Shown piece after piece: positions 25,099 through 55,578 of a stretch of DNA of 64,000 bases. Every line of letters begins with the position of its first letter. The first letter of the stretch is position 1. Source of the DNA: Raillietiella orientalis (lineage: Eukaryota); contig JAYWIR010000034.1 in NCBI GenBank assembly GCA_036172245.1, positions 806,001 to 870,000 of the forward strand, in the 5' to 3' direction. Both the position numbers and the translations under genes were made by a program. The notes beneath the pieces are model-generated. The model saw only the letters and a program-made list of their open reading frames with translations, did not search any database and had not been told where the DNA came from.

Positions 25099-25278
25099 TT
25101 AGTCGAAGGTTTCCCAGAACTTCAGGGACTTGAAGTACTCTGGAAGGTGCTCGTCTAGGCGGGCAATGACCTTGTAGATGGACTTCTTCCAGGATTGTTC
25201 CCGGTCCTGATTCAAGAGGATGGACTTGACGAACTCGTGAGTCGTTCTCTCCACCACGCTCCGAAAACCCTCCGGAGC
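25099..25278 (-). CDS. pros: prospero last coding exon (Prospero domain C-terminus)
   Basis: CAG acceptor at 25281-25279; [59 protein letters not shown]. Confidence 0.95.
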
Positions 25279-28200
25279 CTGTCCCGAGGAGAAATTGGGA
25301 GAGGAGAAGGAATTAGGTCTGGATTCTCCAGGAGAAGCGAAATCTCTACCTGTATCTGATTGTTCCTGTTGTAGTGCAAGTTCAGGACACGGTACAGTTC
25401 GCATCCCTCGCCTATGGAAACATCCTCGCTCTTCCTGAGCCCGTCGTTGATCATCTGGCGCGCGTACTTCTCGATCTGAATGTAGTAGAACTCCCTGAAG
25501 AAAAAAAAGACCGTCCATCGCGGAGGAAGAAAAAAGTAGGGGAAGGGATATCAAGGAAGGGAAAGTCTCCCACGAGGCACCAGAAGAAGACCTCAAGCCT
25601 CGAGACAGCAGCAGTAGCGACTTCTCGAGAGGATTCCAGTGATAATCCCTCTCCTGTTAACGTGCTCAGCACCACTCGAGATAGAAGGCCTGGATCGGGA
25701 AGCACCGTTCCTAGATTTCGATTGCAGATCTCGTTCTGTGGCGGGAGATGAGCCTTTTTGCTCCTCCCCCCCTTTTTATCCTTCCCTGCCAACTCTTTCC
25801 TTCGACTTGGAGGAATACCGGACATCTGGAGCTTCCGGAAAGCTCTAATGAAGACTGAAGAAGGAGACTTTTCATCCTAGCGACGAGGACACGCGTGTCT
25901 TTCGGTTTCGCACTCCTACAGGCGACTGTTTCATTTCTCCCGAGATCGACCGCTTCCCTGATCCTTCCTCTCTCCTTCTCCGTCTCCAGAACGCGCTGGA
26001 CGGTCATTCCTCCTGTACCTATCAAGGCGTTCCCGTCTCGCATTCTCTCTTCCCGAGCTCTCGAAAGGCGCGCGGCGGCTGGGAAACCGCCCGCGTTACC
26101 ATGGCTACAGCCGATGCCTCGATTCGAAAGAAGAGGCACCATCACCACGGTTTGTTTCCGGAATATCTCTTGAAGAGCCACAGACTGTGTAGGAAAGGGA
26201 GGGGCGGGCTTTTTTACTTCCTCTGTCGGGTCCAAGGGACTTTTGGTATTCGCGTGCTTTCCAGGACGAGTCCGGACGGGAAACAACGAGAAACCTCCAA
26301 AGCTTCTCAGAATGCATGCCTAGAGCAGCACCCAATGTGTGTGCGTGGGGAACAGAATGTGGATTCCGGTTCTTAGGGTCAACAGGAAGTCACAGCTGAG
26401 TGGGACAGGAAGGGGAAGGAACCGATGATGGAGGGGAGCGGATCAAGGTACATCTCTTCTGAAGGAATATGCCGAACTATCAGCGGGTACGCGGGGCGTC
26501 TCCGAGGCTCAGTGTGGCTTTGAGAGAGCCGTTGTGTTGCGAGTCATCGCCTTTCCCCATGGAAACCGGCGTTAAATGCCGTCTGCAGTCTCTCTTCCGC
26601 ATCCGTATTTCCTTTGCTCTCTAGACGAGAGAAAAGGGCGCAAGGGACGCGTGTCGAGAGGAGAGGATACTCTTCTTCGAAGGAACCGCCAAAGGCAAAA
26701 GAGAAAGCCGGGAAATTCTCAGAGTAGAGCATCCTTCAGCTTTCCGGAGTGTTAGGATCTGTTGTTCTGCCGAGTCAGAGATCTGGAATCTCCTGCAGAG
26801 TGGTCATCGGCTTGCATTGAAGGTCTCTGCAGATACGTGATCTTTCATCTGAACGGACCTCTCTGTGTGCCGGGCTCTACCTGAGTGGGAGCCGACTTTT
26901 ATCCTCGTCTTCCCTCTTGGATCGCGCATGCGCTAGAGTGGCTAGCAGGAAACGAAGGAGGTGAGCAAGTGAGGAGAGAGCAGTATTCTTGAAACGCCTG
27001 CCTTTTACAGCCGACGACTCCCTGACCACCCAATCACTTGGGAAGTCTTCCCTCTTCTTCCTCCTCCTTTCCTGTTAGTTTCTATAAACTAGGAGACCTT
27101 ACAGTCGATTGCCTCCCTGTCACTCCCTAAGGATCCAGCAGCAGAAAGCAGTACGAAGATCTGAGTTCCTTGTTGTCATAATAGAGGACAACAAGGAACA
27201 AGGAAGTTCCTTGTTCTCTTTCTTGACGCCTTCCCCCTTGCTCCAACTCCTCCTTCTTCTCTCCCTCGTTGCTTCCTGAGTTCTGACGCGCGCGTGGGAG
27301 CGAGTGCTGCTTTCCTATTCCAGGGAAAATCTCCATCCTGCTTCATAGCAAAATTGCCCTGTAGGCAAAGGCTCTAGCCTTCGAGAGGTGGGTGTCCCCA
27401 CTTTTTTTAAGATCGGGCGGTCAGGTTGAGGAAATATAAGAATTTCATGCGATAAGAGGGATGAAAGCCGGCCGTTTCTCTCGGAGAGAGTCCTTGTGCC
27501 CATGATACAGACCCGATGAGGGATTCTCGGCGGTCATCTCCCAGACATGCACTTGAGTTCGTCCCTTTTTTTCTTTCCTTTTCTTCTACAGGACTTTGGA
27601 GCACTCTCCTTACCCAGACCCTCTCTTTCCTTTTCCTGTTCCACAAAGAGTGAGAAAGGGAACTAGCACGCAGGAGGCACGAAGAAGGCGTGTGTAAATG
27701 TCGGCCATTTCCTGCTTGTGGCATTGCCATAGAAGCCGCATGGCGATCGCACGGAAATGATCATCCTAAAGCACATTTTGGGGGATCCGGGAAAAATGAG
27801 GATTCGAGGGAACACTCACGAGACTTTTTCTTTGCTTTCTCCCTCGCATGACTCCACATGACAGCGCCCATAGCAACACCTACCGCACGAGGTCCAGATT
27901 GGACTGCGAAGTCCTCCTGCTCCTCGACTCGGTCATTCGGAAAGGTCTTGATCTTTCCCTCTCCAAACTCTTTCCCCCCCCTCCCTCTTTGATGACGTCC
28001 TGGTGCTGCAAACGGAACGGCTTGAAGCTCGGGGAATGGCAAAACCTTACAGGGAGGGAAGGGAACACCAGGGAGAAAACACATTCGACAGCTGGGCGTG
28101 GAGCCTGCAGTCCAGTGCCTCAAGTGGATGCGGCACTCTCTGGTTGCAGCAAACGCCCTCAACCTCCACTCTTGGAATGCGGGCAACCTGGAGCTCTCTG

Positions 28201-31200
28201 GGAAGGGTAACGACATAGCTCCGGCGACGCGGCGATACTGTTCTGACAGTCCCCCGCTTCGGTGGGGAGCAAGGGAACCTCCCCTTCAAAACCCAAGACA
28301 CTGAAGTGCCTGGAGGATTTTTCCCTCAGAAATCTGTGATTCGCAGAGATCAAGGCTGAAATCCCGGTCGCCTTGGTGGTCTTCCGCGGTGTCGGGAGCC
28401 AAAAACTGCCTTTGGCAGCTCAACCCACGTGCCCCTTTCCTCCTCGCACAGGAAGCTTTCCTTTGCTCGCTCTTGGAGGTTCCCTGAAGAGGTCGATCCA
28501 CAAAAGTTGTCTCTTTACGTTGGCGGTCCCTCACTAGGGGTCATCTGCTCCAGGAATCAACTCGAGACAAGTTTACTTGGCGCCAGCAGCGCTCACCAAG
28601 GATCGCTCCGGCACTTGGGCCATTTCCTCGCTTCTCTACCAAACGGAATTCTGAAACAAGGATCCGTGTTGCTTGCTGGTACTCAGGGAACATCCGGAGG
28701 AGACAGGAGAAGGGGTCTTCCTGCAGCACCAGCCAGCAACCTCAGAACAGCAGTACCAGACAAGGAGAGCATCCTGCCAAAGGATGCAGACTGATGGGAG
28801 AGGCTAAAGAACCCTCGAGGTCTGCGTTCTACGAAGCAGCAGCCCCCCATGCGCTCTTTTCTTCCTGCTCCCTCAAGTGTAAATGAGTGCTCGTTTCCTC
28901 AAGAGAGATGAACCAAATGCCACTGGAGTCTACTCAGGACTCTTGCAGAGGGAAGAGTTCCTGTGATGAGTTTCCTTAGACTTCCGGTATTCCCGAAAGG
29001 GAGATTCCCGTCATTTCTAAGGAACTCTCCCTCATTCTTATAGCAAGATCCTTCCGGTGGTCGCTGAAATCCTCTTCCTTCCCTGTCATAAGGAGTCACA
29101 AGCACGGGTTCCGGGTCAACAAAGACGTCGTCAGAAGGCGGCAGCTGTGCAGAAGGAAGCCGTAGTCCTAGTGATCCCCTGCTCCCTGTCTATGGCTCCC
29201 AAAATCCCTTGTTGAAAGAAAAAGACGTGGAACTCCCAGAAGGGGGGAGAAGAAAAGAGAGAAAGAATTTTGGGAACCATGAGAGGAAGATATCGCGGAG
29301 ACACCAATCCAAAGGGAGCTCCCAGGAACCCGGAATAGGTTCGATCCAGAGCGACGAAAGATGCGAGAAGCTTCCAAGCAGCACGCACGTCCCTCGAGAA
29401 GAGGAGAAACTGTTGCTATTGGATGTTGTTCTCGCTCTCCGGGAACGGCAGTAAGGACCTCTTCCCTGGGGAGAAGAGGTGGAAGGGGTGCTCAGTGACG
29501 GGAAGGTAAGCTCTACCATCGCCGGCCCTGGAGTGGTCTCTGATTGACTCACGGAGTGGAGAACGATCCCCACTTCGGAAACAGGCGAGTGTTCGGTGGT
29601 CCCAAAAGACTCCTCCGTTCTCGTGCAAGGTCCTTTCGAAGGAGAATCCAGAAATCGGGATGAGGGGGAGAAGGATCTGTTCCATCCTGCCATGACCGAA
29701 GCATCTGCAGTCCCGTAAAAGAAGGGAGAGGCAGCGGAAAGCAGGAGAGAGAATCCTCCAGAGGGTGCATTGAGGATATCCTGATATGGGTTCGGGCACT
29801 TCGCAACCTGGTTCAGGATTCGCCAGCCTGGGGTGAGGCGCGCAGCTCAGGAAAGAGTGTGGGTCTCACGAAAGGAGGACTAAAGACCTCCTTTCGGTCC
29901 CCAATAGCCGGAAATCTACCTGACATCTGACCTTCTCTTGCAGAGGAAGGGTCGATCGACCGCTGGCGTTCTGGAGGACACTCCCCTTCCCCCATCTTGG
30001 GAGCCACTGCAGTCCCCCCATACTCAAGGAGAAGCAGCAGTAGAGAGGAATCCTTCAGCAGACCGACCATTCCTCCGCTCTCCCCACCCCATCCCCGAGG
30101 GCACGTGGATCCTGCCACCCCTCTCCCGTGAACCATCGAGGTTCTTTCTTGCCCTTTCCCTCCTTCGTAAGGCCGTTCAGCCCTCGCCCCCGTTTTTCTG
30201 TTTCCCGGAAGACTCTAAGGGACAACAAACTCTTTAGGGGTCCGTCGAGGTGCGTCTATCCCTGGAAGTGACACAGTCCTCCTGTCGTCTCCTCGGGCAC
30301 TCCTCAAAGGCGCATCCCGGGAACACCCGGTCCGATCTTCGGAACGCACAGACGCATGCACTTCGCGCCTGGGAGCCGCAATCCCGGAGTAGAGGACCTG
30401 AGGCAAGGCTTACTAGAATGGTCTTCCCGGTCATGGAACCGGGACTCTGTTCCCCGCCAGTCCTGTTTTACGAGGGAATGCACCAATCCTATAGGTTTTG
30501 TTTGAACGCTTCCTGATGAAAAGAACCTCTCCTACGCTTCCCGGGAGGATCCTTCCTTCCTATCCCGGCAGGTTAGGAAGGATCCTCCCAAACATACAGG
30601 ATCGTTCGGAGAGTGGAAGGTGGGTGGGAGGTCATGAGCAATGGACCATTTCTTCCTCCCAACCCTTCGGTTCCCTCACTTGCGTATGGGACGCTCTTCG
30701 TGAGGAGGCCACGAGCCGTAGGGAGAAAAATCCTCGGGGAATCCTTCCCTCACCCTTTTTTCGTTTGGAGAATGAGAAGCTTCTACCACTTCCCCTTTCC
30801 CTTCTCCCGTTCTCAGCACATCCCCAAGCCGAGCCGGCTGAGGTAGGGTCTGATAGGACCAAGGAGAAGCGTGATCCCGGGACCCAACTCCGCTTCTCAC
30901 CCGCGTGTTTCCATGGAGATCGGCCTCTCTAGCTGGCGATAGCACCTTGGTGGTCCGAACTCTTCCGGCTTTTCTTTTCTGCGACATGGGACCATGCCGA
31001 CTCCAAGCACTCTTCTCCTGTTTCGCCTTTCGCGCCCTCCTCTCCCTCCAGTCTTCCCTAATCTCTGCTCCCACCTTCCTCCTCCTTCTCCATACGCTTT
31101 CGCCTCCCCTCTCGGGTGAGAGGAAGCACCCGGGAAGAAGAGCAGAGAGCCTCTGCCCGCTGCCTGGAGGTTCGAGCACCCAGAGAGGTTTCCGCCACAA

Positions 31201-34200
31201 GACTACGACGCAGCGAGGCCTTCAGATCCCAAAAGGAGAAATCTGCAGCAGCCTCTCTCGCCTGACCAACCCTGCCACAAGGCTTCCGGAAGCTTCGGTG
31301 TCCGGAGGGAAAGTGTGGGAAGCAGCGGGTGGCCCACAGGGAAACAGGCATTCTTGAGCCCTCTCTTCAGCGACGTTGGTGGCGAGGGAAAAAATGGACC
31401 GAGTGCGGAAAGGGGGTGATGGGGTGAAACAGGGGGATGGGGAGGATAAAGGCGATTCCTCTCACTTAAATGCTTCTCGGTGTAGGACACTGCAGCAGCG
31501 TTACTGCCCTTCCAGTCACTGTGGAGGTGGCGGCTCCTCGGCCAGAAGGGACCATTCGAGAACTCAATGCTCCCTCGGGCGTGTTCTCCGGGAACCTCCC
31601 TTTTTTCATGAGAGAGGCGCTAAACCTGAGCAGGGCCCCTCGAGCAGGGATAGAATCTCTAGAGGGGAGCCACAGTACCCGACCTCCTGAGCCAGCAGGT
31701 TTCATGCGGGTCTCCTCGCGTTTACTCAGAGGGTCCGAGGTCGGCAGCGGGCAGATGGCGAGGCAATCGCTCCATAGCTCTTTGGCGAGCCTCGGAGGAT
31801 GCCAGCAGGGGGCCGCAAGCGCCCCCAGCTGCACTCCGTGCACCCCTCGTCTTCCCCCTCTCCCTCCCGGGAGATCGGCCCCCGGCTGCAGCCAGTGTCT
31901 GCCCACCATATTTCCTGCGCCCGCGCCGTTACCGGGGTAACCAGCGGCGGAATCCTATCTAATCAAGGTTGCTTCCGGGACAAGGGATGGGGAGTGAGGT
32001 GCGCGCATTCCGGGAGACAACGCCCACCCCTTCCCTTTCCCCGGTTTGCCAAGAACCTCGAATTCGGGAGTGCCGTCCTCCCTCCGCCCCGGAATTCCCT
32101 GAAACTCCGCCGGAGGGACTGTTCGGACGGAAGTCGCTCTAATAGAGGGTTCCGGTATTCCTGAGCATCGCATGGGGCCACCGGCAGGAGAGGACGGTGA
32201 GTGATTCCCGCAACCGGTGCCTCCCTCCTCGGGTCATCCCGGAAGGGAGAAGAAAGGGGGGGAGAGAACCCGCCGCCTGGCATCCCTTCCAGGGATCATC
32301 GGAATCGACCTGGCGAAGGGATCTTCCACGTGCTTCACGACGCTCACGAGGACGGGATCGCTGATTGCTTCCCGGTCCCGCGAGTGGGGATCGAAGCATC
32401 CCGCCCCTGAGAGATCGTCTGGGAGCGTTCGGACGGGAAGACCGGCGCTCGCGAGTGCGGGCGGGAATCAGCATCACGCGCTCGGCAAACATAGGGAGAG
32501 GCGCACTAATCCCGGACGTAATCGACAGATCATGCCCGCGCGCCACGGGATGAGCAGGGAGAATAGGGCGCCCTCGGAAGGGACCGGTTCGCTCGCACCC
32601 CCCCCCCCCGGCCGCCTCGGAGGAGAGGAGGAGGAACAGACCCCACTTTCCAGAGTGCCCACCCCCATCCCCAGTTCCCGGAGGGAAACTCAGCTATCGA
32701 GCGGCGAGGAGCGGAGAGGTCGTCACCCTGGCCGCTCGCCTCCCTTCCTGGATCTCCAGGGAAGCGGAGAAGGCGACTCCTCCCACTCCCTTCTCCCAGG
32801 CGGAAGCGGGCGAAGGGTAAGGAGAGAGGGAGGGAGAAAGGGAGGAGCCGACTGCATCCCGAGGAGCGCGCGGGAGCCTCTTCGGGCAGGGAGCGGAGGG
32901 AGGAGCCGAGGAGCGGGAGCGCGCGGGAAGGAGCCCGCGGCGGGGAAACGGGGCGGAGCGACAGCTCCCCGCCGCCTCTCCCTCCCCGGAAGCGGCGGAG
33001 GCGGCAGTGGGGAGAAACTCACCGGAAGTTGGAGTACCACTTGACCAGCTGGGCGGTGTTGTTCTTGTTGAAGCGGACGTCCGGGAAGTAGGTCTTCAGC
33101 ACGGAGGAGCTGGGGTAGCGCGTCCAGAAGAACATCAGCTTGGCCTTGCGCAGGTGCAGGGGTGTCAGCGTGGCGAAGTGTCCCTGCGTTAAGGATCTCT
33201 CGGGAAGGCCATTGGCGCCGCCGCCGCCGACAAAAGGATATGGCGCGGTGGTGGAACGCCGCGCAGCCTGGACGCGCCGGGACGACGCCGCGGCAGAAGC
33301 CCAGGAAGCGGCCGTCCTTCCCCGAGAGCGAAGCGTCCGGGAACGACGACGCTCCCCCCTGCGAGGAGCCGCCGCTGCCCCCAAAGAAGGGAACGTGTCC
33401 GCAGGCGGACACCAGGAAGGGGCCGCGCGGCAGCTCCTCAGGGTCGGGAGGCAGGGGGAACTTGTCCTCGGCCCCTCCGGGGGCGCCCGGTCCGCCGGTT
33501 CCCGAGGGTCCCTCCGGTAGGGCTCCCGGATCCTCCAGAACCCTCTGGTTGACCCGGGTGTCCGTGACCTTGGTCCGCCGCCTCTTTGCGGCGGCCAGCA
33601 CGGATCCCTCCAGGGGGTCCAGGTGGAGGAGGCACCCGTGCGCGGCTTCCGGGCGGAACGGGGCGTGGTTCGTGAACAGTCCCGCCGCCGCCGCGGGCCC
33701 AGTGCCGCCACAGCCGTCCTGCGCTGCTGCTCTGGCGTGAGCGGGGAGGGTGCACGGCAGGGGCTCCGCTCCCCTGCCGAAGATGGCGCTTGCCTCCGGA
33801 CTGCCGGAAGGGGCGGCTCCTGTGGCCGCCTCTGGGGGACCCTCGTCGTGCCGTTGGTCCACGGAGAAGGGCCGATATAGACCGCCGCTGCGCAGCGAGG
33901 CGGAGGGGCCACCTGCCTTGGGCGCGGAGGGGCCGCTCCGCAACAGCCCGAGGACGTCTCTGGCGTAGGCGGAGAAGGAGTGCGCCAGGGCGTTGGCCAG
34001 CCGCTGGGTGAGCAGGTCCAGCTCCCGGACTGGGAGGGACTCGGCCCTCCCTGCCGCCTCCCGAACGCACTCCGCTAGCATCTCCTTCGATCTCCTTTCG
34101 TGCCGGCAGATGAGACCCCGCAGGGCGGCCTCCTCCTCCTCGTCCACGGAGGGGCTACTCCTCCTCCCGGGAGGCGGACGTGGAGGCGGCTCCGGCCCGG

Positions 34201-34876
34201 CGCGCGCGCCTCCGTCGCTTCTGCTGCCACCGCCGCAGCGGCCCAGGTCGCCACCACTCTCGATGGTCCGGGGGGCCTTCCTCCCCCCTGCCTCAGGCGG
34301 TGCGCCGCCTCCCTCTCCCTCGCTCGAGTCCCTTCCCGGTGGGCCTTCCTCTCCACGAAGGGACTCCTGCGAACCCTCCTCCGATCCGCGGTCCTCCGCC
34401 CGGAGGCACCCGTGGGGGGGGAAGCTCAGCAGCCTCTTTCTGCTTGCCCGGTCGGCCCTCGGCGCGCGGAAGGGGTCGCCACACAACCGCAGGAAGGCCT
34501 CGGCGGGCAGCCGGCCGCCGAGGAAGGGGGAGGATCCCGCCCGGGGGAACAGGTAGGAGGAGGAGGAGTCCAAGAGCTGCTGGAACTTCACCGGGGGCAG
34601 ACGGCAGACGTCCGCCAGCGCCAACGGGAAGTGGGCTGCTGCGGCTGCGGCTGCGGCTGCGGCCGCGGCGGAGAAGGGGAGCATGGCATAGGGACAGTCG
34701 GGGCTGGGGGTTGTCTTGCCCGCCAGGTGGTGGTCGGCGGAGCTCCTTGGGAAGGTCCCCAGGCACGGCGTCCGAGACTCCCCCGCATCCACGCGCTGGC
34801 GCATCCTGCGATGCTTCTCCTGCAGCCACTCCACTTCCAGGCCGGGAAGGGGCGTCCCTGACGCCGCGGGCTCCAT
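25099..34876 (-). CDS. pros: Prospero/Prox homeodomain transcription factor; join(34876-33242, 33177-33023, 25494-25350, 25278-25099), about 704 aa (752 aa if ATG at 35020 is used)
   Basis: Spliced product reads [11 protein letters not shown]...[64 protein letters not shown]...[27 protein letters not shown]...[25 protein letters not shown], i.e. the homeo-prospero domain. All three junctions keep frame. Confidence 0.96.
25350..25494 (-). CDS. pros: prospero coding exon 3
   Basis: TTTTTTTTCTTCAG acceptor; [18 protein letters not shown]...[14 protein letters not shown] donor at 25349 opens a 71-nt intron. Confidence 0.95.
27850..28800 (+). mobile_element. Degraded non-LTR ORF1/endonuclease remnant in prospero intron 2
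   Basis: Decayed knuckle '[10 protein letters not shown]' (~28100) and frameshifted 'VIC/LQES' (~28540). Confidence 0.3.
28900..29900 (-). mobile_element. Degraded non-LTR RT remnant in prospero intron 2
   Basis: '[12 protein letters not shown]' (cf. GVPQGSVLSPLL) followed at plausible spacing by 'SDDVFV' (cf. YADD) at ~29120-29135. Confidence 0.35.
30900..31700 (+). mobile_element. Degraded non-LTR RT remnant in prospero intron 2
   Basis: '[10 protein letters not shown]' (cf. QxGFRxxRST) at ~31180-31210. Confidence 0.3.
33023..33177 (-). CDS. pros: prospero coding exon 2 (homeodomain)
   Basis: [22 protein letters not shown]...LVKWYSNFR; ends in phase 2 at GTGAGT donor (33022), opening a 7528-nt intron. 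Confidence 0.95.
33178..33241 (-). other. U12-type (minor spliceosome) AT-AC intron, 64 nt
   Basis: 5' site ATATCCTTTT (33241-33232), branch site TCCTTAAC (33195-33188), 3' AC 10 nt later (33179-33178). Removal joins the long upstream ORF to the homeodomain frame. Confidence 0.93.
33242..34876 (-). CDS. pros: prospero large first coding exon (low-complexity N-terminus, poly-Ala, [11 protein letters not shown] motif)
   Basis: Part of the 765-aa ORF 32723-35020; contains the Prospero KxxRxKVTDTR motif and '[11 protein letters not shown]'. Start codon ambiguous (34876 vs 35020). Confidence 0.85.
34634..34669 (-). repeat. Coding (GCAGCC)n repeat giving a poly-alanine tract of about 12 residues
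   Basis: GCC GCG GCC GCA GCC GCA GCC GCA GCC GCA GCA GCC on the minus strand. Confidence 0.9.
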
Positions 34877-35020
34877 CGTGGGCGCTACTAGCGCTCTGCG
34901 GGCGGAGACACGGGCGACAGGTAAAAACAGCCGGGAGACACATACACACACCCCTTCCCCACGCCCACGCGCACGCCCACGCCTCCCTTCATCCGGGAAA
35001 GTTCCCTGCGTCCTCTCCAT

Positions 35021-38000
35021 CTAGGTTCCTTCCCCTCATCTGGGAGGGTGGAGCATTCACGAAAAGAAGCAGGATGGGGGCGGGAAAAGGTGGTGCTCCG
35101 CCCCGTACCTTCCCTTAGAGGGGACGGACAGGCCGGGGACACTGAAGGGAGGGAGAGGGGTGACGCCTCGGCGCATGCTGCCGGCAGCATCCCCTTTCCC
35201 ACCGCCCTCTCTTCGCGGGAAGCGGGGAAGCAGAAGGGAGGGTGTCCGGGAAAAGAGAAAGAAAGAGGGGACCTTCCGCTCCTCGAGGAGAGTCCCGCCA
35301 CCAGTGCGCAAGGCCAGCAGAGATGGCCCCACTTGCTTCAGGGATATATCGGGAGGTGATCCACTCACGCAAGTGGCTTCTCTTTCGACACCCCTCCCTC
35401 ACCCTATTGAGAACCCTTCCATGTGGGAGAGAGTCGCGGAGCTCTGCTCTCGTTTCTCCTTCGTCTCCAGAAACGGAAGGGCGCCTCTCCTACCCCCATC
35501 CCTCCCTCGGACGATCCCATCGACCCCGTCCGGAGGCCTCGAAGGTCGAGCAGCTCCCCGCTCCTGCCAGGAGTCCAGGAGAGCCGCTTCCCGAGAGACC
35601 ACGGCGAGTCCATCGAAGGGACTCCCGGACCCTTTCCCCTCCCGGCCTCGGGAGGGGTGTGAAACTCCTGACGAACTTTCCGCAAGAGCCGAATGGCGCA
35701 CCCGGAAGGAGGACCATCTCTCCCTCCAAGGTCCCAGAAGGAGTCGTCCAGACTGCTCGAGGGAGGAGTGAGGGCAGGGAGCCTGGGGCGGGACTTCTCT
35801 TTTCGGAGGGTTCCGGAGGGGACTGGAGAAGGGAACGGGAAAATCCGTGGAAGGAGGAAGCGGCATGTTCTCTCTCTTCCTCTCCCCCCCTCCCCTCCCA
35901 TCCCGCTCTCCCGGAGATCCCTATGACTCTCCATGGACCAGCCCGAAACACGAGACCCTCGTTACCTGGACGGTGCGGGCGCCGAGAACGCCCGTGCGAG
36001 GCCGCGGGAGTGGCCCTTCCCGCCATCACGAATCCCGGAGCAGTGAGGGAGCACTCGGGAGGGCGGCCTCCTTTAATCCCGGCAGGAGGAAGACGTTCCC
36101 GGAACGGGACGCGGGGTGTGCTCTCGGAGGCGCGGCGGCCAATCATCTCTCGGAGAGCCGGCGAGTACCCTTCCCGTCCCGTCGCCGTGGAGACGACGGC
36201 CGGGAGGAGCGCCCTTGTGCAAGGCGGGCGGGCGTCCCTCGATCCGTCCGTCCGGCAGGGAGCGGGGTCCGGGGAAGGAAGACGACTGGGAGGAGGAGGC
36301 ACGGGGTGTGCGAGGGAGGGAGGGAGAAGAAACGGGGAGAGGGGGGGGGGGGAAGGAAGGCGGCGGTAATTTGATTTGGCGGGACGAGTTCCAGACGGTC
36401 CCGGGAGCCGGGAGGCAGGGAGGGAAGCATCGATCAGGACACGCGCATTACTGCTAATTGGATCCCGGAAGGGCAGGAGTTGCCCCGCTCGGAAACCAGC
36501 CGCCCGGCCGGCAGCACGTCCTCCCACCCTCGCCCCACCCCCCCAAGCAACCCGTCCAAGCTCGGGAAAGATTCCCTTGGGCGGCGGGCCCCGCGCTTCT
36601 CGGAAGGCCGCGTGGGAGGGAAGATACTCAGGGGAAGAGTCACAGGGCGGAATCAGTAAAGGGAAGAAGGAGGGAGCGGTCGCCAGGAAGGAGAGGAGGA
36701 GGAGGGAGAGGCTGTGGAGGCGCTCGAGCAGGAGGAAGAGGGGGAGAAGAAGGAAGGCTCCCCGGGATCCTGAAGTTTAGGGGCGGGGGCGGGGCTGACC
36801 TTTCTTAAGGATGGGAAGGGGCGTCTCTGACTCCCCTCCTCTTCTCCTTTCCAATGCAGCGAGGTTCCAACTGACGAGCTCTTCGAAAGAAGCTCTGGAG
36901 GCATTCCAGGAAAGGAGTGTTCCCGTCGGAGCCTCCCAGCAGACTCGGGAAGTCACCTCCGCCCAGCGCATCCCCTCCATCTCTTTTCTCCCTGTCCTTC
37001 TCGGGGGTCTTTGAATAACTTCGCTCTCCTCCACAAGGGAGTGGATCACTTCGGAAGGGGTTCCGAAGAAACTCTGGCTGGAGGAAGGGGAACCTCGGAG
37101 GAGAAGCAGGGCCACTCCAAGGAAGACCAGGAGCCGTCGAGCGATGCCGTCAAATTTTGAATAGCGGGATCCGGAAAGGGGAGTTCTCTCCAGGATCTCT
37201 TCGGCTTCTCTCTGAGTCTGAGGGGAAGTAGGGGCTCCTGAAGTTCCCGAAGGGCCACACCGCCGCAGGTCTCCGGCAGCGTCGGTCTCGAGATTCCGGG
37301 GTTCTCACCTCTCAGCAAGCACGTCCCAGGTGCTGGAGCACCGCAGGGAATCTTGCATGGTGGGTCCGAGATTCGCCCTTAGGATGAGGGGGGGGGTATG
37401 GGTCGGAATGAGCATCCCCTCCCATATCACTTGGCATCGGAAATAATGGGCTCGGAAGGAAGGCGCGTGCACTCCCGGTGCACCCCGAGTACCCCTTGGG
37501 ATCCCCAGGATCCTTCGTTTCCAGGAGAGACACTGCCAGCCAGGAAACGTCTTCACTCCTCGAGGGGAAAGGGATGGAAGGAGTAAGAGAGCACCGAAGT
37601 GGACTCATACGACTCCAGGCAGACTCTGGAGGATGCCATGGTCTTTTCAGGACTTCTGGTTTGTTCAGGGAGCGCGTGCCGCTGGACGAGGTTTCCAAGA
37701 GCAGCGGCGTCTCCTGCGGAGTTGCTGGGAGACGTAGGAACCCGCAGATTTGCGCCGGGCTAAGAGGGCGGAGAAGCCGAGGGAGGAGGAGGAAGGGAAG
37801 GAAGGAGCGGAACGGGGAGGGACATAATCTGCGTGGCGGAAAGGGGAACAGCAACGGCTGGGATGCGAGAGCCTCTCTTCGGACAAGAGTCATCGGGATG
37901 ACTCCGAAAGAGGAGAAGGAAGGTCTCTGTCCCTTCTCTGCCCCTCCTCCGCCCTGAAGTCAGCGAGTTCGCCCCGAGGCTGAGCGGGTCTTGAGCGGCC

Positions 38001-41000
38001 TGCCCGGAGGAGGCCTTCAGCTCGCCCCATCGCTCCGCCCTGACTGCGAACCTCGGCCGGACCTCTCGAAACTCATGTGAGGGTGGCGGCGCCACCCGTT
38101 TTTCTGACAAGCTCACAGGCTCTGCACGCGTCCCGAGCTACGACGTTTTCGGCTTCCTCCTTGGCAAATCCTTACGCCGCCCAGTTGTCAAGGCAACCAA
38201 GACCCGCCTGGTTGACTACTGAAGTCTCTCTGAGGAAGGGAGGGGTAAAGGGACAGGGAGTGGAGGAGGGAGGGAAGAGAATCCTTTCTCAAGATCCTTT
38301 CTCCTCCTCCCTTCCTCCTCCTCCTCTCCAGAAACAGCCGCCGCTTTCAGTTTTCACCTCTCCAGTGGGCTCTCTTCAGGAAGAAGGCGCGGCTTTCTTG
38401 AATTGAGAGGAGAAAAAAGACCGGCTTAGAGGGAGAGGGGTGGTCACGGCTGGATGCTGCCTTGGCAGCGCCCTCTTGCCAGAGGCGCCTCCCTCTGCTC
38501 TACATCCGTTCACCCACTCGACAGAGACGGACGTCCACCGCTGGCCTCCGCAGCTTTCCCGAAGGAAAAGGGGGGCGGCGGTGGAGGGGAGGAAGGGGGA
38601 AACTCGACGCGCTCGGGAAGGTCCCCGCCCTCCAGTCTTTCTGGGGATGCACCCCCTTCCGTGCTTTGGGATCGTTTCCCGCGTGGTTCCGCTTTTACGA
38701 GTCTCTCCTCCCGGGAGCGCCGGCTTCCCCTCCGTCCACGGCATGCGACCGGCACTACCGACGGGCTCTTTGGCTAGGCGGCCGCCCTCCGGCTGCCCTT
38801 TCGCCCTGCCTGCTCCATTTTCGACTCCCGGCACCCAACCTGCTCCACACCCCCATCGGAGGCTGCCACTTCAAGCTACTCCTCCCCGATGTGGGCTTCC
38901 GGAGAAAGGCGGGATCGTCCTCCGTATCCACCTCCCCAGGTCTTCCCCTGCATGCCTGAGTCCTTGTGACACCGTCGACTTTTCAGAGGTGCCTAGAGGC
39001 AGTGGGGAAATTTCACGAACACCCAGTCCTCGATCTCCAAAGGAGACTCTGCCGAAAGGGGAGATGGGTCCTGCGGTGCAAAGAGAAGGGGAGCGAGGAG
39101 GGTTCTCCCTCTTCCTCCCTCCACCTCGCGTCTCCTCACAAGGCGACCGGAACCCCGGGCTTTCCCGTTAATTGGATTTCCTGAGGAAGATTCGGGGGTG
39201 GCGCTGGTCCATCCGCAGGCGCTGCGGCCCGCGGGCTGATTAATTGGTCGCCGCGGAGGGGCTGGCGGCGGCCCCTGCTTGTCGCGCGCGATCCCTGCGG
39301 ATCGAATTAAGGGAGGAAGGAGGAGGAGGGGACGACAGAAACATGAGGCGAGCGCGGACCCCTGGTTCATTGGCAAGCGGTTCCGGCCGGCGGCGCCGGC
39401 AGAGGTGCAGAGCAGGAACAAGATATATGCGAGGAAACGGAGTGGGCACTAGGAAACAGGGAGAGGTCAAGCGGCGACGTAGTCAGGGAAGCTGGCGTAT
39501 GGCGCGCCTCGCCTTCCGCTGGGGGGGGAGGCGTCCAGGGCTCTAAGGGACCCTCTCGGGAGGCGGGTAAAAGAGATGAGGTCCCGCTCCTACTCTTGTC
39601 GCCACCCCCCAAAGCGGCGTCGGCACCAGGGAGGGGCGACCACGGCACAGTCGCCCTCGCGACCTGGTCCGGAACAAAAGATGGGAGGACTCCTGCCCTA
39701 CGCTTGCCGACATCACAGGGAACGAAAAAAGGAGGGACAAGGCCTCTTGACCCGAGGCTCCCAGGAAAGAGGACGCGCTCCCATCCCTTCCTTCCGCGTC
39801 TCCTACCCCTGTCGGAAGGGGAGCGCTCTGTGCCCACACTCCCTCCATGCTCGCCGATGGGAGAGGGGGGAAAAGGAGGAGAGAGAAAAGGAGAGTCCCA
39901 TCGCATCTCTGAATCCTCCTCGAGCCCATTAAAAAGAAAAGGTAAAGGACGCTTTACTTTTTCTTTTCCTCTTTCTCTGCCTCCTGCATCCTGGGCTCCC
40001 CAGCCCTTCCTCCTCCCTCCGCGCGAGAAAGCAGGCTCCGGAAAAAAGGGAGGGAGGGAAGGAGGAAGGGAGGGAGGGAAGAGAGGGAGACAGACCTCGG
40101 GAGGGGAGTCGGTGCGGCGGAGTCGAAATCAACTGCAATTTTTTTTGCCTACTCAGCTGTGGATCCCACGTGGTGATGGTCCAGGTCCAGCTTCCCGCTT
40201 CCTCTCCCGATCCTCGCTGCTTCCTGCCCGCCACGGCCGGATCTGCTGCTTTCGAAGCACTTGAGCGACGTGCTCCTCCCTCCCATTCCTCTCTTCTCTA
40301 TTCCTGCGCGCTGAGGTCGGGAGCCGCGCACGCTTGCGCGGGGAGGGGGGGGGGGCGAGAGGAAGGGGTGGGGAACTCCAGTACGCGGACGGTCCGGACG
40401 GGCAACAGGTCGTCTTCTGGGACTCAGAGGAATGCCTGCCTGCTCGCCTTCCACGTACGGGATTAATGGATCAGAAAAACGGGACACGATGGGAGCGCCT
40501 CTGCCCAGTCTGCGGCAGCGCAGAAAAACAAAGAAGCAAAAAAAGAAAAAGGGACGAAGAACGGGGATTAAAAGGAAGAGATGGGAGAGGGAAGGGAGCG
40601 GAAGAGAGGAGCTGGCGAAGGGTATCCTTGACCCAGATGGACCTCCCCACTAGGAGGAACGGAGATGGCGGCGAAGTCTTGATCTCATCGGGATGGTTTG
40701 CCTCCTCCACGTAGCCCCCTCCCGCTTAGTCTTTCGGTGTACAAGGAGACCTCTTCCCTTGCTCCTTCCTTCCCTTGTCCTCCTGAGACTTTCCTTTGCT
40801 GCTGCTGCTACTGCTGCAAGGTCTCGCCACGGTGGTTCACCCTGTTGCTGCATGCATGGACGGAGACTCGTATTCCATGCCGGAGAAGAGTAGGGGGAGG
40901 AGTCGAAGAAGGCGTAGGGGACGCACCGTCATCTCGCTGATCCCTTCTCCTTCCTCCCCTCGCCGAGTGACATCGTCTGGCATCCGGTCGGCGTGGAGGA

Positions 41001-53100: not shown

Positions 53101-55578
53101 TTTTTCTCTTTTCTGTTCTTCCAAGACCTCGGCGTGAGACACCCAAACTTGAGCTCATTGCAGTATGAGGCTTGCGTGTTGCGGTCTTTGCCAGTGACGT
53201 ACGATTTCTGTTGCCACAACTTGCATTCCGTTCGGAATTCCTTAGCGTTTGCTATGAAATTGCTTTCCTTAGGATGTCAAAGTTTCGCGTGTAGTTTCTA
53301 AAAAGTATATGGCATTTTTCGATCGTGCTACAAGTCCTGTTTGCTTGTCCCTCCTATCTGCTGAGAGGAGGAACCAAACGATATCTGGAGAAGCATTTGA
53401 TCTCAGTGAAGTAGCCTCGGGCACTTTCGATTGTCGTTACCTTCGAGTTGCATGGATTGTGATTTATGGCCTGCATGGTGATTTGCAACGTTAAGGTCGT
53501 CTCTCATTACTGAGGTCCTGTTCGGTCGGGTCCTCTTCAGGATTGTGGTCGGCAGGATGCTGTTGCCAGGTTCCCACTGATTCCATATGCTCCTTCTTCA
53601 TTCCATTGTGTTCAAACAGAATCAGCATTGCCCCTACGTCTAGGTTGAGATTGTCACCGATTTCAATCTGTTGCTACCTGGAAAAACGATTGCAATCTTC
53701 TCGCAGCTCGTGTCGCTTTTTACAGAAGTGACCATGACTCGTTAACGTCTGTGATTCATTTATTCACCAAGCATTTGCAGGAAAGAAGAACTTAGGCTAC
53801 CCAAGTAAGGAAAGATGGTCCCGGAAGATGGTTGATAATTACATAAAGGTTTCGTCCGAAAGTGCAAATGTAAATAATAGGCGGATAATGAATCATACTT
53901 TATTGATTCCTGGGGAGAACAGTTGCCAGAAACCATTAAAATTGTTCATTCTAGGTAATTAAGTGGTTTTACAAATTGATTGCACACCTGGATTATTGGG
54001 GGGGGGGAGGTAAAAAGATACCTTATGAGTACATTCTTCGGCATTGATAGCCGATTCATTACCGTGTGTTCCAACGCATTTACGAATTTCGAAGGAAATA
54101 TTCAAAGTCGATGTATAATAAACTCGTTGGACTTTTCCATTACCTGATAGTTGTTTTGATTCCAGATGTTGTGTAGCTTTCCATGTGTCCGAAGGATTAT
54201 CTTGACAGGCACCCCTCTTCAGAACAATCTATCAGAATACACAGCTCTCATAAACTTTGTAAACCCTAACATTTTAGGATCCGATTATGGTAGCAGTATG
54301 CGTAATAGGATGTGCCATCAGTGTATTCTAGAATCCGAGTTGCAAGGAAATGACGATGTGCTTCCATCCGAGGTTACGTCCGTTTTTATTCTTCGGCGTA
54401 CTCAAGAGGTCGTAGGGAAATACCTCTCTCCCAAATCTGAGTATATCGTATTCTGCAAAGCGACTTCCCTCCAAGTAAGGGCGAGGATCGAAATGTTCCA
54501 ACTGCTTAGATCCGACCAGACTGCAACTTACAACGAATATTTGGAGCGCGAAGAAGAGTGCTCCCTCGCACACCAAGGTCGGGCCTTCAGTACCATTTCG
54601 ACTCTTCGGAAAATCTGCAATCACCCGGCGTTCGTATTAGGAGGATTGGTTGGTTATTCATGGCGCACATAGGGCCTTGTATTTTTCCTTCCTCAGTTTG
54701 CGGCTGAAGATTCAGGGAAGTGGCAGATCATCAGAGATCTACTGGCCTCGTTTGTGAAATATGAAAATGAGAAGTCAGTTGTCGTCTCCCATTTCACCGA
54801 AGTGTTAGACTCTGTTCAGGATCTCTGCCTGGAATTAAACGTGAAATGGCTCAGACTGGACGGAAACACTTCTCTGTCACAGAGGCAGAAGTTGGTGGAT
54901 CGTTTCAATGATGCGCGGTCTTCGGAGAGTAAGCTCAGACGCGGCAGATGAATCTTAGCCAAAAGTGCGCATTTATCAGGAGTATTTTTTCTTAGTGCAA
55001 AGGCCGGAGGTCTTGGATTGAATCTCATTGGGGCATCTAGACTGATCCTCGTTGATTTGGACTGGAATCCAGCTACGGACCTGCAAGCCCTCAGTCGCAT
55101 TTGGAGAGACGGGCAGAAAAAACAAGTGCATCTGTATAGATTAGTCACCTCTGGGTCGATCGAAGAGACAATGCTGTGGAAACAGATGAGCAAGTCTCAG
55201 TTGAGCTGCTCAGTGATTGATCAGGATGGTTCCCTGTGCCCTCCTGACTCCGAACAGCTTAAGGTACGAGCAGCGCCCGTTTCCATGAGAAAAACTTGTA
55301 CGTAGGAGATATTCGCTCCTCTCACCCCTGAAAGAAGCGTAATCCAGTCGATCGTTTCATCTAGAGAGGAAGCTGCCCACCCAGATGAAGAAGAGGAACC
55401 CTGGGGAGAGTTCCATCTTTTTGGCAACCTAGACCCGAAGAAGCAAAAGAAAGCTGGTGTGAACGAGTTGTTGAATTGGGAGTATTTCGAGTTCCCCTTA
55501 GTCGAGAGCATCCAGGATAGTCACCTGGAAAAATGTTCGCTGGTCTCATTCGTACTTAGGAATAAATTTTTCACGTGA
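50178..55578 (+). CDS. RAD54B: RAD54B-like SNF2 DNA repair/recombination helicase; join(50178-50277, 50321-50572, 50969-51183, 51227-51374, 51422-51574, 54166-54474, 54520-54648, 54697-54928, 54980-55263, 55306-55578); first exon uncertain
   Basis: N-terminal [22 protein letters not shown] (RAD54B/Rdh54-type), [103 protein letters not shown]. All introns GT-AG and frame-consistent. Confidence 0.93.
51933..51954. repeat. (AT)n microsatellite in RAD54B intron
   Basis: Uninterrupted run of about 11 AT dinucleotides. Confidence 0.9.

Follow-up and report, generated by a model that had tools for sequence, protein, structure and literature searches.

The prospero gene of Drosophila (CG17228, pros) is listed as carrying an AT-AC "Twintron" and its human ortholog, PROX1, a U12 intron (Lin et al. 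2010, PMC2831892 Table 2). According to Janice et al. 2012 (PMC3291851), every insect and vertebrate analysed there has the prospero U12 intron and the twintron is confined to insects, so that absence of the twintron outside insects is the expected state. The U12 intron of pros has been described as ancestral, with the U2 sites arising early in insect evolution (PMC3564746), and the nested U2 GT-AG intron of Drosophila gives rise to a form of the protein that is 29 aa longer (PMC3564746, PMC3291851).

Splicing of U12 introns favours a short distance between branch site and 3′ splice site, with a reported optimum of 11–13 nt; combinations of AT with AG ends are described as disfavoured and the choice of U12 3′ splice sites as error-prone (PMC3584512). 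Very short minor introns are on record: in the protist Blastocystis—where introns have been miniaturised genome-wide—their mean length is just under 42 bp and their median 39 bp, and they are mostly AT-AC and often in phase 0 (Larue & Roy 2023, PMC10639083). The same study reports that the median length of minor introns correlates with that of major introns from species to species (Spearman 0.903) and that the surviving minor introns of insects are disproportionately long (PMC10639083), while honeybee, fugu and maize are described as having large short-intron peaks in both classes (PMC7367187). No minimum length of U12 introns for animals was found in four papers on the subject (PMC1557818, PMC7367187, PMC11347168, PMC3291851).

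The 64-kb stretch of DNA analysed here (the window) carries on its minus strand, at 33241–33178 and directly 5′ of the homeodomain exon of a prospero gene, a 64-nt intron with AT-AC ends. The gene belongs to the same Homeo-prospero domain (HPD) family as Drosophila pros and human PROX1, and in the window, as in Drosophila, an AT-AC intron directly precedes the exon in which the homeodomain starts, the match being one of boundary rather than of exact Drosophila coordinates. Unlike Drosophila pros, the window intron is only 64 nt long and holds no productive nested U2 pair.

Gene model and splice signals in the window

A search of stop-to-stop ORFs with Pfam recovered a complete HPD (PF05044), with profile positions 1–152 of 154 distributed over three minus-strand exons (Table 1). 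Joined together, exons 2–4 give 160 codons with one stop, which a script confirmed to be terminal, and the two U2 introns between them have T-rich acceptors. Exon 2 shows 80–90% identity to the 120 prospero homologues listed, the named ones being arthropods or a nematode, and a homologue search with this exon gave E ≤ 0.001 in 488 of 491 candidates. Exon 4 is more divergent, at 59–72% identity to prospero from centipede, scallop, krill, chiton and Trichinella (10 matches in total), those of centipede, scallop and Trichinella being the closest. This divergent C-terminus speaks against an insect. A downstream exon of prospero here reads QIEK rather than QMEK. On sequence, the locus is thus supported as a prospero gene with four coding exons and one AT-AC intron.

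Table 1. Features of the prospero locus, with positions counted from the first nucleotide of the window.
Feature	Positions	Strand	Remarks
Large upstream coding exon	33242–35020	−	Open from 35020; stop-to-stop frame 32723–35020; true 5′ limit may differ
U12-type AT-AC intron (predicted), phase 0	33178–33241	−	Removal fuses ...FHHRA to FATLTPLHL
U12 5′ splice-site motif ATATCCTTTT	33232–33241	−	One of two ATATCCTT on the minus strand of the window
U12 branch-site motif TCCTTAAC	33188–33195	−	Exact consensus; sole TCCTTAAC on the minus strand of the window
3′ terminal AC of intron	33178–33179	−	GGGACAC offers two AC ends
Exon 2, 155 nt, ...KWYSNF(R)	33023–33177	−	N-terminal part of Homeo-prospero domain; GC3 0.98
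Intron 2, U2-type GT-AG, 7528 nt	25495–33022	−	GTGAGT...TTTTTTTTCTTCAG
Exon 3, 145 nt, (R)...NRNNQIQ	25350–25494	−	HPD profile 46–101
Intron 3, U2-type GT-AG, 71 nt	25279–25349	−	GTAGAG...GGGACAG
Exon 4, coding part, 180 nt with TAA stop, APEGFRSVV...KFWETFD*	25099–25278	−	HPD profile 98–152
HPD profile 1–50	Stop-to-stop frame 33022–34074	−	E 2.6e-25
HPD profile 46–101	Stop-to-stop frame 25215–25550	−	E 6.8e-21
HPD profile 98–152	Stop-to-stop frame 25102–25656	−	E 6.4e-15

The upstream exon is GC-rich and encodes a low-complexity stretch of 593 aa that ends in ...AAFHHRA. GC content at its codon positions 1/2/3 is 0.73/0.63/0.81 (0.77/0.65/0.84 over the last 294 nt before the donor), with flanking non-coding controls flat by codon position (0.68/0.67/0.67 and 0.65/0.61/0.64). 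A word-based search with the 593 aa found no homologue at E 0.001 among 8000 scored candidates, and BLASTP against barnacle prospero returned nothing significant. Nematode prospero shares two collinear short motifs with the exon, one of 13 letters (E 0.016) and the other KRRRTKVTD (E 0.28); the KVTD motif, found in the window some 115 aa ahead of the donor, is also present in fetched insect and crustacean proteins. Codon-position bias and the KVTD motif together argue for coding in the upstream frame as far as 33242.

In minus-strand orientation, the boundary runs ...CACCGCGCC / ATATCCTTTTGTCGGCGGCGGCGGCGCCAATGGCCTTCCCGAGAGATCCTTAACGCAGGGACAC / TTCGCCACG..., where ATATCCTTTTGTCGGCGGCGGCGGCGCCAATGGCCTTCCCGAGAGATCCTTAACGCAGGGACAC is the intron; the exon that follows it opens with TTCGCCACGCTGACA. 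The 5′ splice site is a perfect match to the /ATATCCTT of the U12 AT-AC subtype. Counted from the final base of the intron, the two A residues of the branch site lie at 12 nt (33190) and 11 nt (33189), a spacing inside or adjacent to the optimum; only 46 nt separate the first intron base from the branch-site motif. In keeping with the same subtype, the intron closes with GCAGGGACAC, which has no polypyrimidine tract and a terminal AC. No unusual RNA structure was found in the intron (fold z-score 0.71; 157 of 200 shuffles folded equally well or better), and Rfam, run over the whole 64-kb window at gathering thresholds, gave no matches and hence no U11, U12, U4atac or U6atac snRNA.

How readily such signals meet by chance was gauged within the window. 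With both strands scanned, the combination ATATCCTT-N30-60-TCCTTAAC-N6-12-AC matched a single site, that in prospero, which the scan lists twice because of its two AC ends; none of 100 dinucleotide-preserving shuffles contained the combination. The one TCCTTAAC and two ATATCCTT on the minus strand form just one pair less than 1 kb apart, namely that of the prospero intron.

The intron position in other prospero loci

Gene callers used on metagenomes do not splice, so many database proteins run from intron into exon and preserve the end of whatever precedes the homeodomain exon. Among 35 fetched ORFs from genomic contigs, 12 have ...SLTxx(H/N/Y) immediately followed by (S/A)TLTPMHL or, in two cases, by SMLTPIHL. 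The stretch SLTxx(H/N/Y) corresponds to TCC-TTA-ACn followed by two codons, the second ending in AC, and its frame and spacing match those of the window prospero. In others of the fetched ORFs, GYG... or GYS... follows an AG, suggesting that a U2-type acceptor lies further upstream, and six cladoceran-like contigs (P0069, P0073, P0091 and P0097–P0099) have one ORF running across the intron position, which suggests intron loss.

We then compared nucleotide sequences at the boundary. A scan of metagenome contigs gave 492 matched stretches, of which 156 encode a relative; the best 80 of these were kept as loci and, after removal of one unusable locus and of 24 with identical 40-nt upstream sequence, 55 distinct loci remained. 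Among these 55 (from the best 80 of 156), a U12-type branch site stands at the exon boundary in 32: it lies 10–16 nt before a terminal AC in 14, 16 nt before a terminal AG in 17 and before AA in one. The search pattern found no branch site in the other 23, three of which nonetheless end in AC after an ACTTAAC-like motif. Loss, conversion or an mRNA origin would account for the 23, and on this comparison the U12 intron is not universal at the position. Five distinct loci (L023, L030, L035, L040 and L076) have the same 11-nt branch-site spacing as the window.

Nine loci also carry a ATATCCTT-type donor after an open phase-0 frame and hold apparently complete AT-AC introns of 81 (L040), 162 (L035), 308 (L025), 605, 705, 1435, 1712, 3217 and 3424 nt, the donors of L020, L064, L072 and L079 being assigned by motif and open frame only. 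In five of the nine, the upstream frame contains the KVTD motif 169–226 aa before the donor. No donors were found up to 4 kb upstream in the loci with a branch site and AG. The window locus agrees with these relatives in position—the exon begins three codons upstream of the L in a 14-letter stretch of the protein, as in the 32 loci—and in phase, which is 0 as in the nine loci with identified donors. The equivalent stretch in other taxa is non-coding, being AT-rich, interrupted by stops and 81–3424 nt long, with only the branch site and the AC conserved.

At 64 nt, the window intron is the shortest of these ten complete examples at the pros intron position. The two next in length, L040 and L035, share with it the ATATCCTTTT donor, TCCTTAAC 11 nt from the AC, phase 0 and a KVTD motif in the upstream frame; they differ in being 17 and 98 nt longer, and L040 has a GC content of 0.27, against 0.61 in the window intron. 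In position, phase and signals, the window intron matches a widely conserved minor intron.

Reading frame and rival explanations

Given a coding frame up to 33242 and the HPD frame from exon 2 onwards, the reading frame must switch between about 33560 and 33177. The intron does exactly this: 64 = 3×21+1, so its removal puts the upstream and HPD frames, which differ, together in phase 0. The original prediction that splicing is needed to bring the homeodomain into frame holds good on this arithmetic. Its further claim, that retention leads to an ORF ending at 32723, is right only if intron 2 is retained along with intron 1; with intron 1 alone retained and introns 2 and 3 removed, the frame continues uninterrupted across the three exons downstream. 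DNA of 69% GC also yields long open frames by chance, and several overlapping ones were seen here.

It could be argued that a conventional U2-type intron, with GT-AG or GC-AG ends and lying at some other point from the KVTD motif to the homeodomain exon, makes the switch instead, and that the AT-AC signals arose by coincidence. Neither reading frame is closed by a stop from 34074 to 33178, so that on paper frame-restoring pairs abound, and enumeration of every GT-AG, GC-AG and AT-AC pair of this kind in 33560–33165 gave 93. The best U2-type donors among the 93, however, match 5–6 of the 9 positions of MAG/GTRAGT, none has a GTRAGT donor, and the acceptors, unlike those of the gene's own two U2 introns, lack T-rich pyrimidine tracts; the U12 motif combination is not what chance produces in the shuffles, and the AT-AC intron sits at a boundary where 32 of the 55 distinct loci likewise have a U12 branch site. 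We consider such a U2 intron barely credible. An assembly indel that breaks a continuous coding sequence, with no intron at all, seems to us extremely unlikely: the stretch is 69% GC and its sequence is known from the assembly alone, but the 64 nt hold both U12 motifs at canonical spacing, and the equivalent stretch elsewhere is plainly non-coding and of variable length (81–3424 nt). A prospero paralog in decay or without function, in which intron signals persist unused, would fit an N-terminal part of 590 aa without a significant homolog and a last exon only 59–72% identical to any prospero found. Against decay stand three intact HPD exons with one terminal stop, six intact splice sites, an exon 2 that is 80–90% identical to the listed homologues with its GC3 of 0.98, and a codon-position bias in exon 1 that argues for selection on coding; we rate this possibility as highly unlikely.

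There remains the question of whether the U12-type intron has more than one outcome. The sole GT inside the 64 nt is at 33231, and the AGs that end at 33199, 33197 and 33184 would give nested introns of 33, 35 and 48 nt. None of these lengths leaves a remainder of 1 on division by 3, so a nested U2 intron would not be productive, as had been predicted, and no nested pair occurs among the 93 that restore the frame; the insect-type twintron, with its productive nested U2 GT-AG intron, is absent. Regulated isoforms could in principle come from alternative 3′ ends, of which the sequence holds two: an in-frame CAG at 33186–33184 that would add Gly-His, and an AC at 33181–33180, 2 nt upstream of the terminal AC, that would yield a 62-nt product and a frameshift (62 mod 3 = 2). 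The error-prone choice of U12 3′ splice sites lends this some plausibility (PMC3584512). The CAG, though, is 5–6 nt from the branch A, where the optimum is 11–13 nt, and would require a disfavoured AT-AG pair (PMC3584512)—the original prediction had likewise placed it very near the branch site—while the upstream AC is out of frame and, at 9–10 nt from the branch A, closer than the optimum. Regulated use of either end strikes us as very unlikely. A point against the main reading is that this AC, only 2 nt away, could act as a competitor of the productive one.

A probable ancient minor intron in compact form

We put at roughly 0.88 the probability that 33241–33178 on the minus strand is a genuine U12-dependent AT-AC intron in a divergent protostome prospero, orthologous to the ancient pros/PROX1 minor intron. 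The splice signals, the frame logic, the conserved position of branch site and 3′ splice site, and the lack of U2 alternatives can all be read directly at the locus and its relatives; from them we would expect the intron to be spliced in the animal and the genome to retain a minor spliceosome. By analogy with established U12 splicing, the U11/U12 di-snRNP would pair with ATATCCTTT and TCCTTAAC, the 5′ splice site would be attacked by one or other of the branch adenosines, and the AC 11–12 nt downstream of the branch A would serve as the 3′ splice site. This would join ...FHHRA to exon 2 with the Homeo-prospero domain in frame and, because there is no productive nested U2 intron, a single homeodomain N-terminus would be made.

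Proposed originally from the letters of the window, the U12 AT-AC intron in prospero has gained from the Pfam identification of the HPD, from its full set of signals at the homeodomain boundary and from their uniqueness in the window and absence from the shuffles. The interpretation attached to it is partly supported, in that it is only partly new: the ancestral pros/PROX1 U12 intron was already in print, and the lack of a Drosophila-type twintron, although real, is not news for a structure limited to insects (PMC3291851). The description "near-minimal" went too far, given the median of 39 bp in Blastocystis (PMC10639083) and the 71 nt of this gene's own U2 intron 3. With such a U2 intron in the same gene, 64 nt looks like the ordinary short-intron size of this genome; for a minor intron of an animal the length is short, yet it does not approach a known limit, and no special adaptation appears to be required. 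It may just possibly rank with the shortest minor introns of any animal, although we think this rather doubtful. Blastocystis shows that a minor spliceosome can remove introns of less than 64 nt (PMC10639083); the difference is that Blastocystis is a protist with genome-wide intron miniaturisation (PMC10639083), whereas here we have one intron of an animal gene that also contains an intron of 7.5 kb.

In practical terms, a gene finder restricted to GT-AG introns would truncate or frameshift prospero, and the four-exon model is a useful product of this work. The locus would add one more lineage that keeps the ancient pros/PROX1 minor intron, in compact form and without the insect twintron. Across different invertebrates, this one intron position appears with AT-AC ends, with an AG 3′ end, as U2-type or converted, and as an outright loss, a variety that illustrates known minor-intron dynamics rather than a new principle. 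If our reading is true, and if minor introns throughout this genome tend to match its short U2 introns in shortness, there would be a contrast with insects; the intron would also offer a natural substrate for asking how near to each other 5′ splice site and branch site may lie and still be bridged by an animal U11/U12 di-snRNP.

Sequence context of prospero in the window

A GC-rich island (32000-40000) takes in exon 1 of prospero together with several kb of DNA upstream of it; its GC content is 0.62-0.69 compared with 0.34-0.55 in the remaining window. As a result of this composition, both strands of the island carry numerous overlapping chance ORFs of 200-430 aa, none of which has a Pfam match. 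Further right, where the window is richer in AT, the plus strand holds a second gene, as evidenced by a match to a helicase domain (see table).

Features of the window and prospero sequences from other sources (L, metagenome loci; P, fetched protein homologues, read as ORFs)
Feature	Position or sequences	Strand	Remark
Second AC	33180-33181	-	2 nt upstream of the productive AC
Exon-sized ORF	54160-54669	+	C-terminal half of SNF2-related helicase domain, PF00176, E 1.3e-21
Branch motif and CAG	L026, L029, L037, L042-L044, L047-L049, L056, L058-L060, L063, L065, L067, L075		Last ~25 nt before homeodomain exon
Continuous ORF, cladoceran-like	P0069, P0073, P0091, P0097-P0099; L001, L002, L006

The 3′ end of the minor intron

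The prospero U12 intron terminates in GGGACAC and so contains an extra AC, use of which would frameshift the homeodomain, making this dinucleotide a possible source of splicing errors.

Among the 55 distinct loci retained from the best 80 of 156 metagenome stretches encoding relatives, 17 have a terminal CAG at the exon boundary seen in the window, with TCCTTAAC or TCCTTGAC 16 nt before it. A search of their available upstream sequence (up to 4 kb) found, in none of the 17, a GTATCC or ATATCC donor preceded by an open reading frame. The placement of the motif before CAG at this boundary suggests that, in some lineage of invertebrates, the 3′ end of the U12 intron has changed to AG.

Possible intron loss in cladoceran-like sequences

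In cladoceran-like contigs, a single uninterrupted prospero ORF crosses the U12 position and stops at the following exon-intron boundary, except in P0091, which reads through. These sequences suggest that the minor intron of prospero was cleanly lost in the cladoceran-like lineage.
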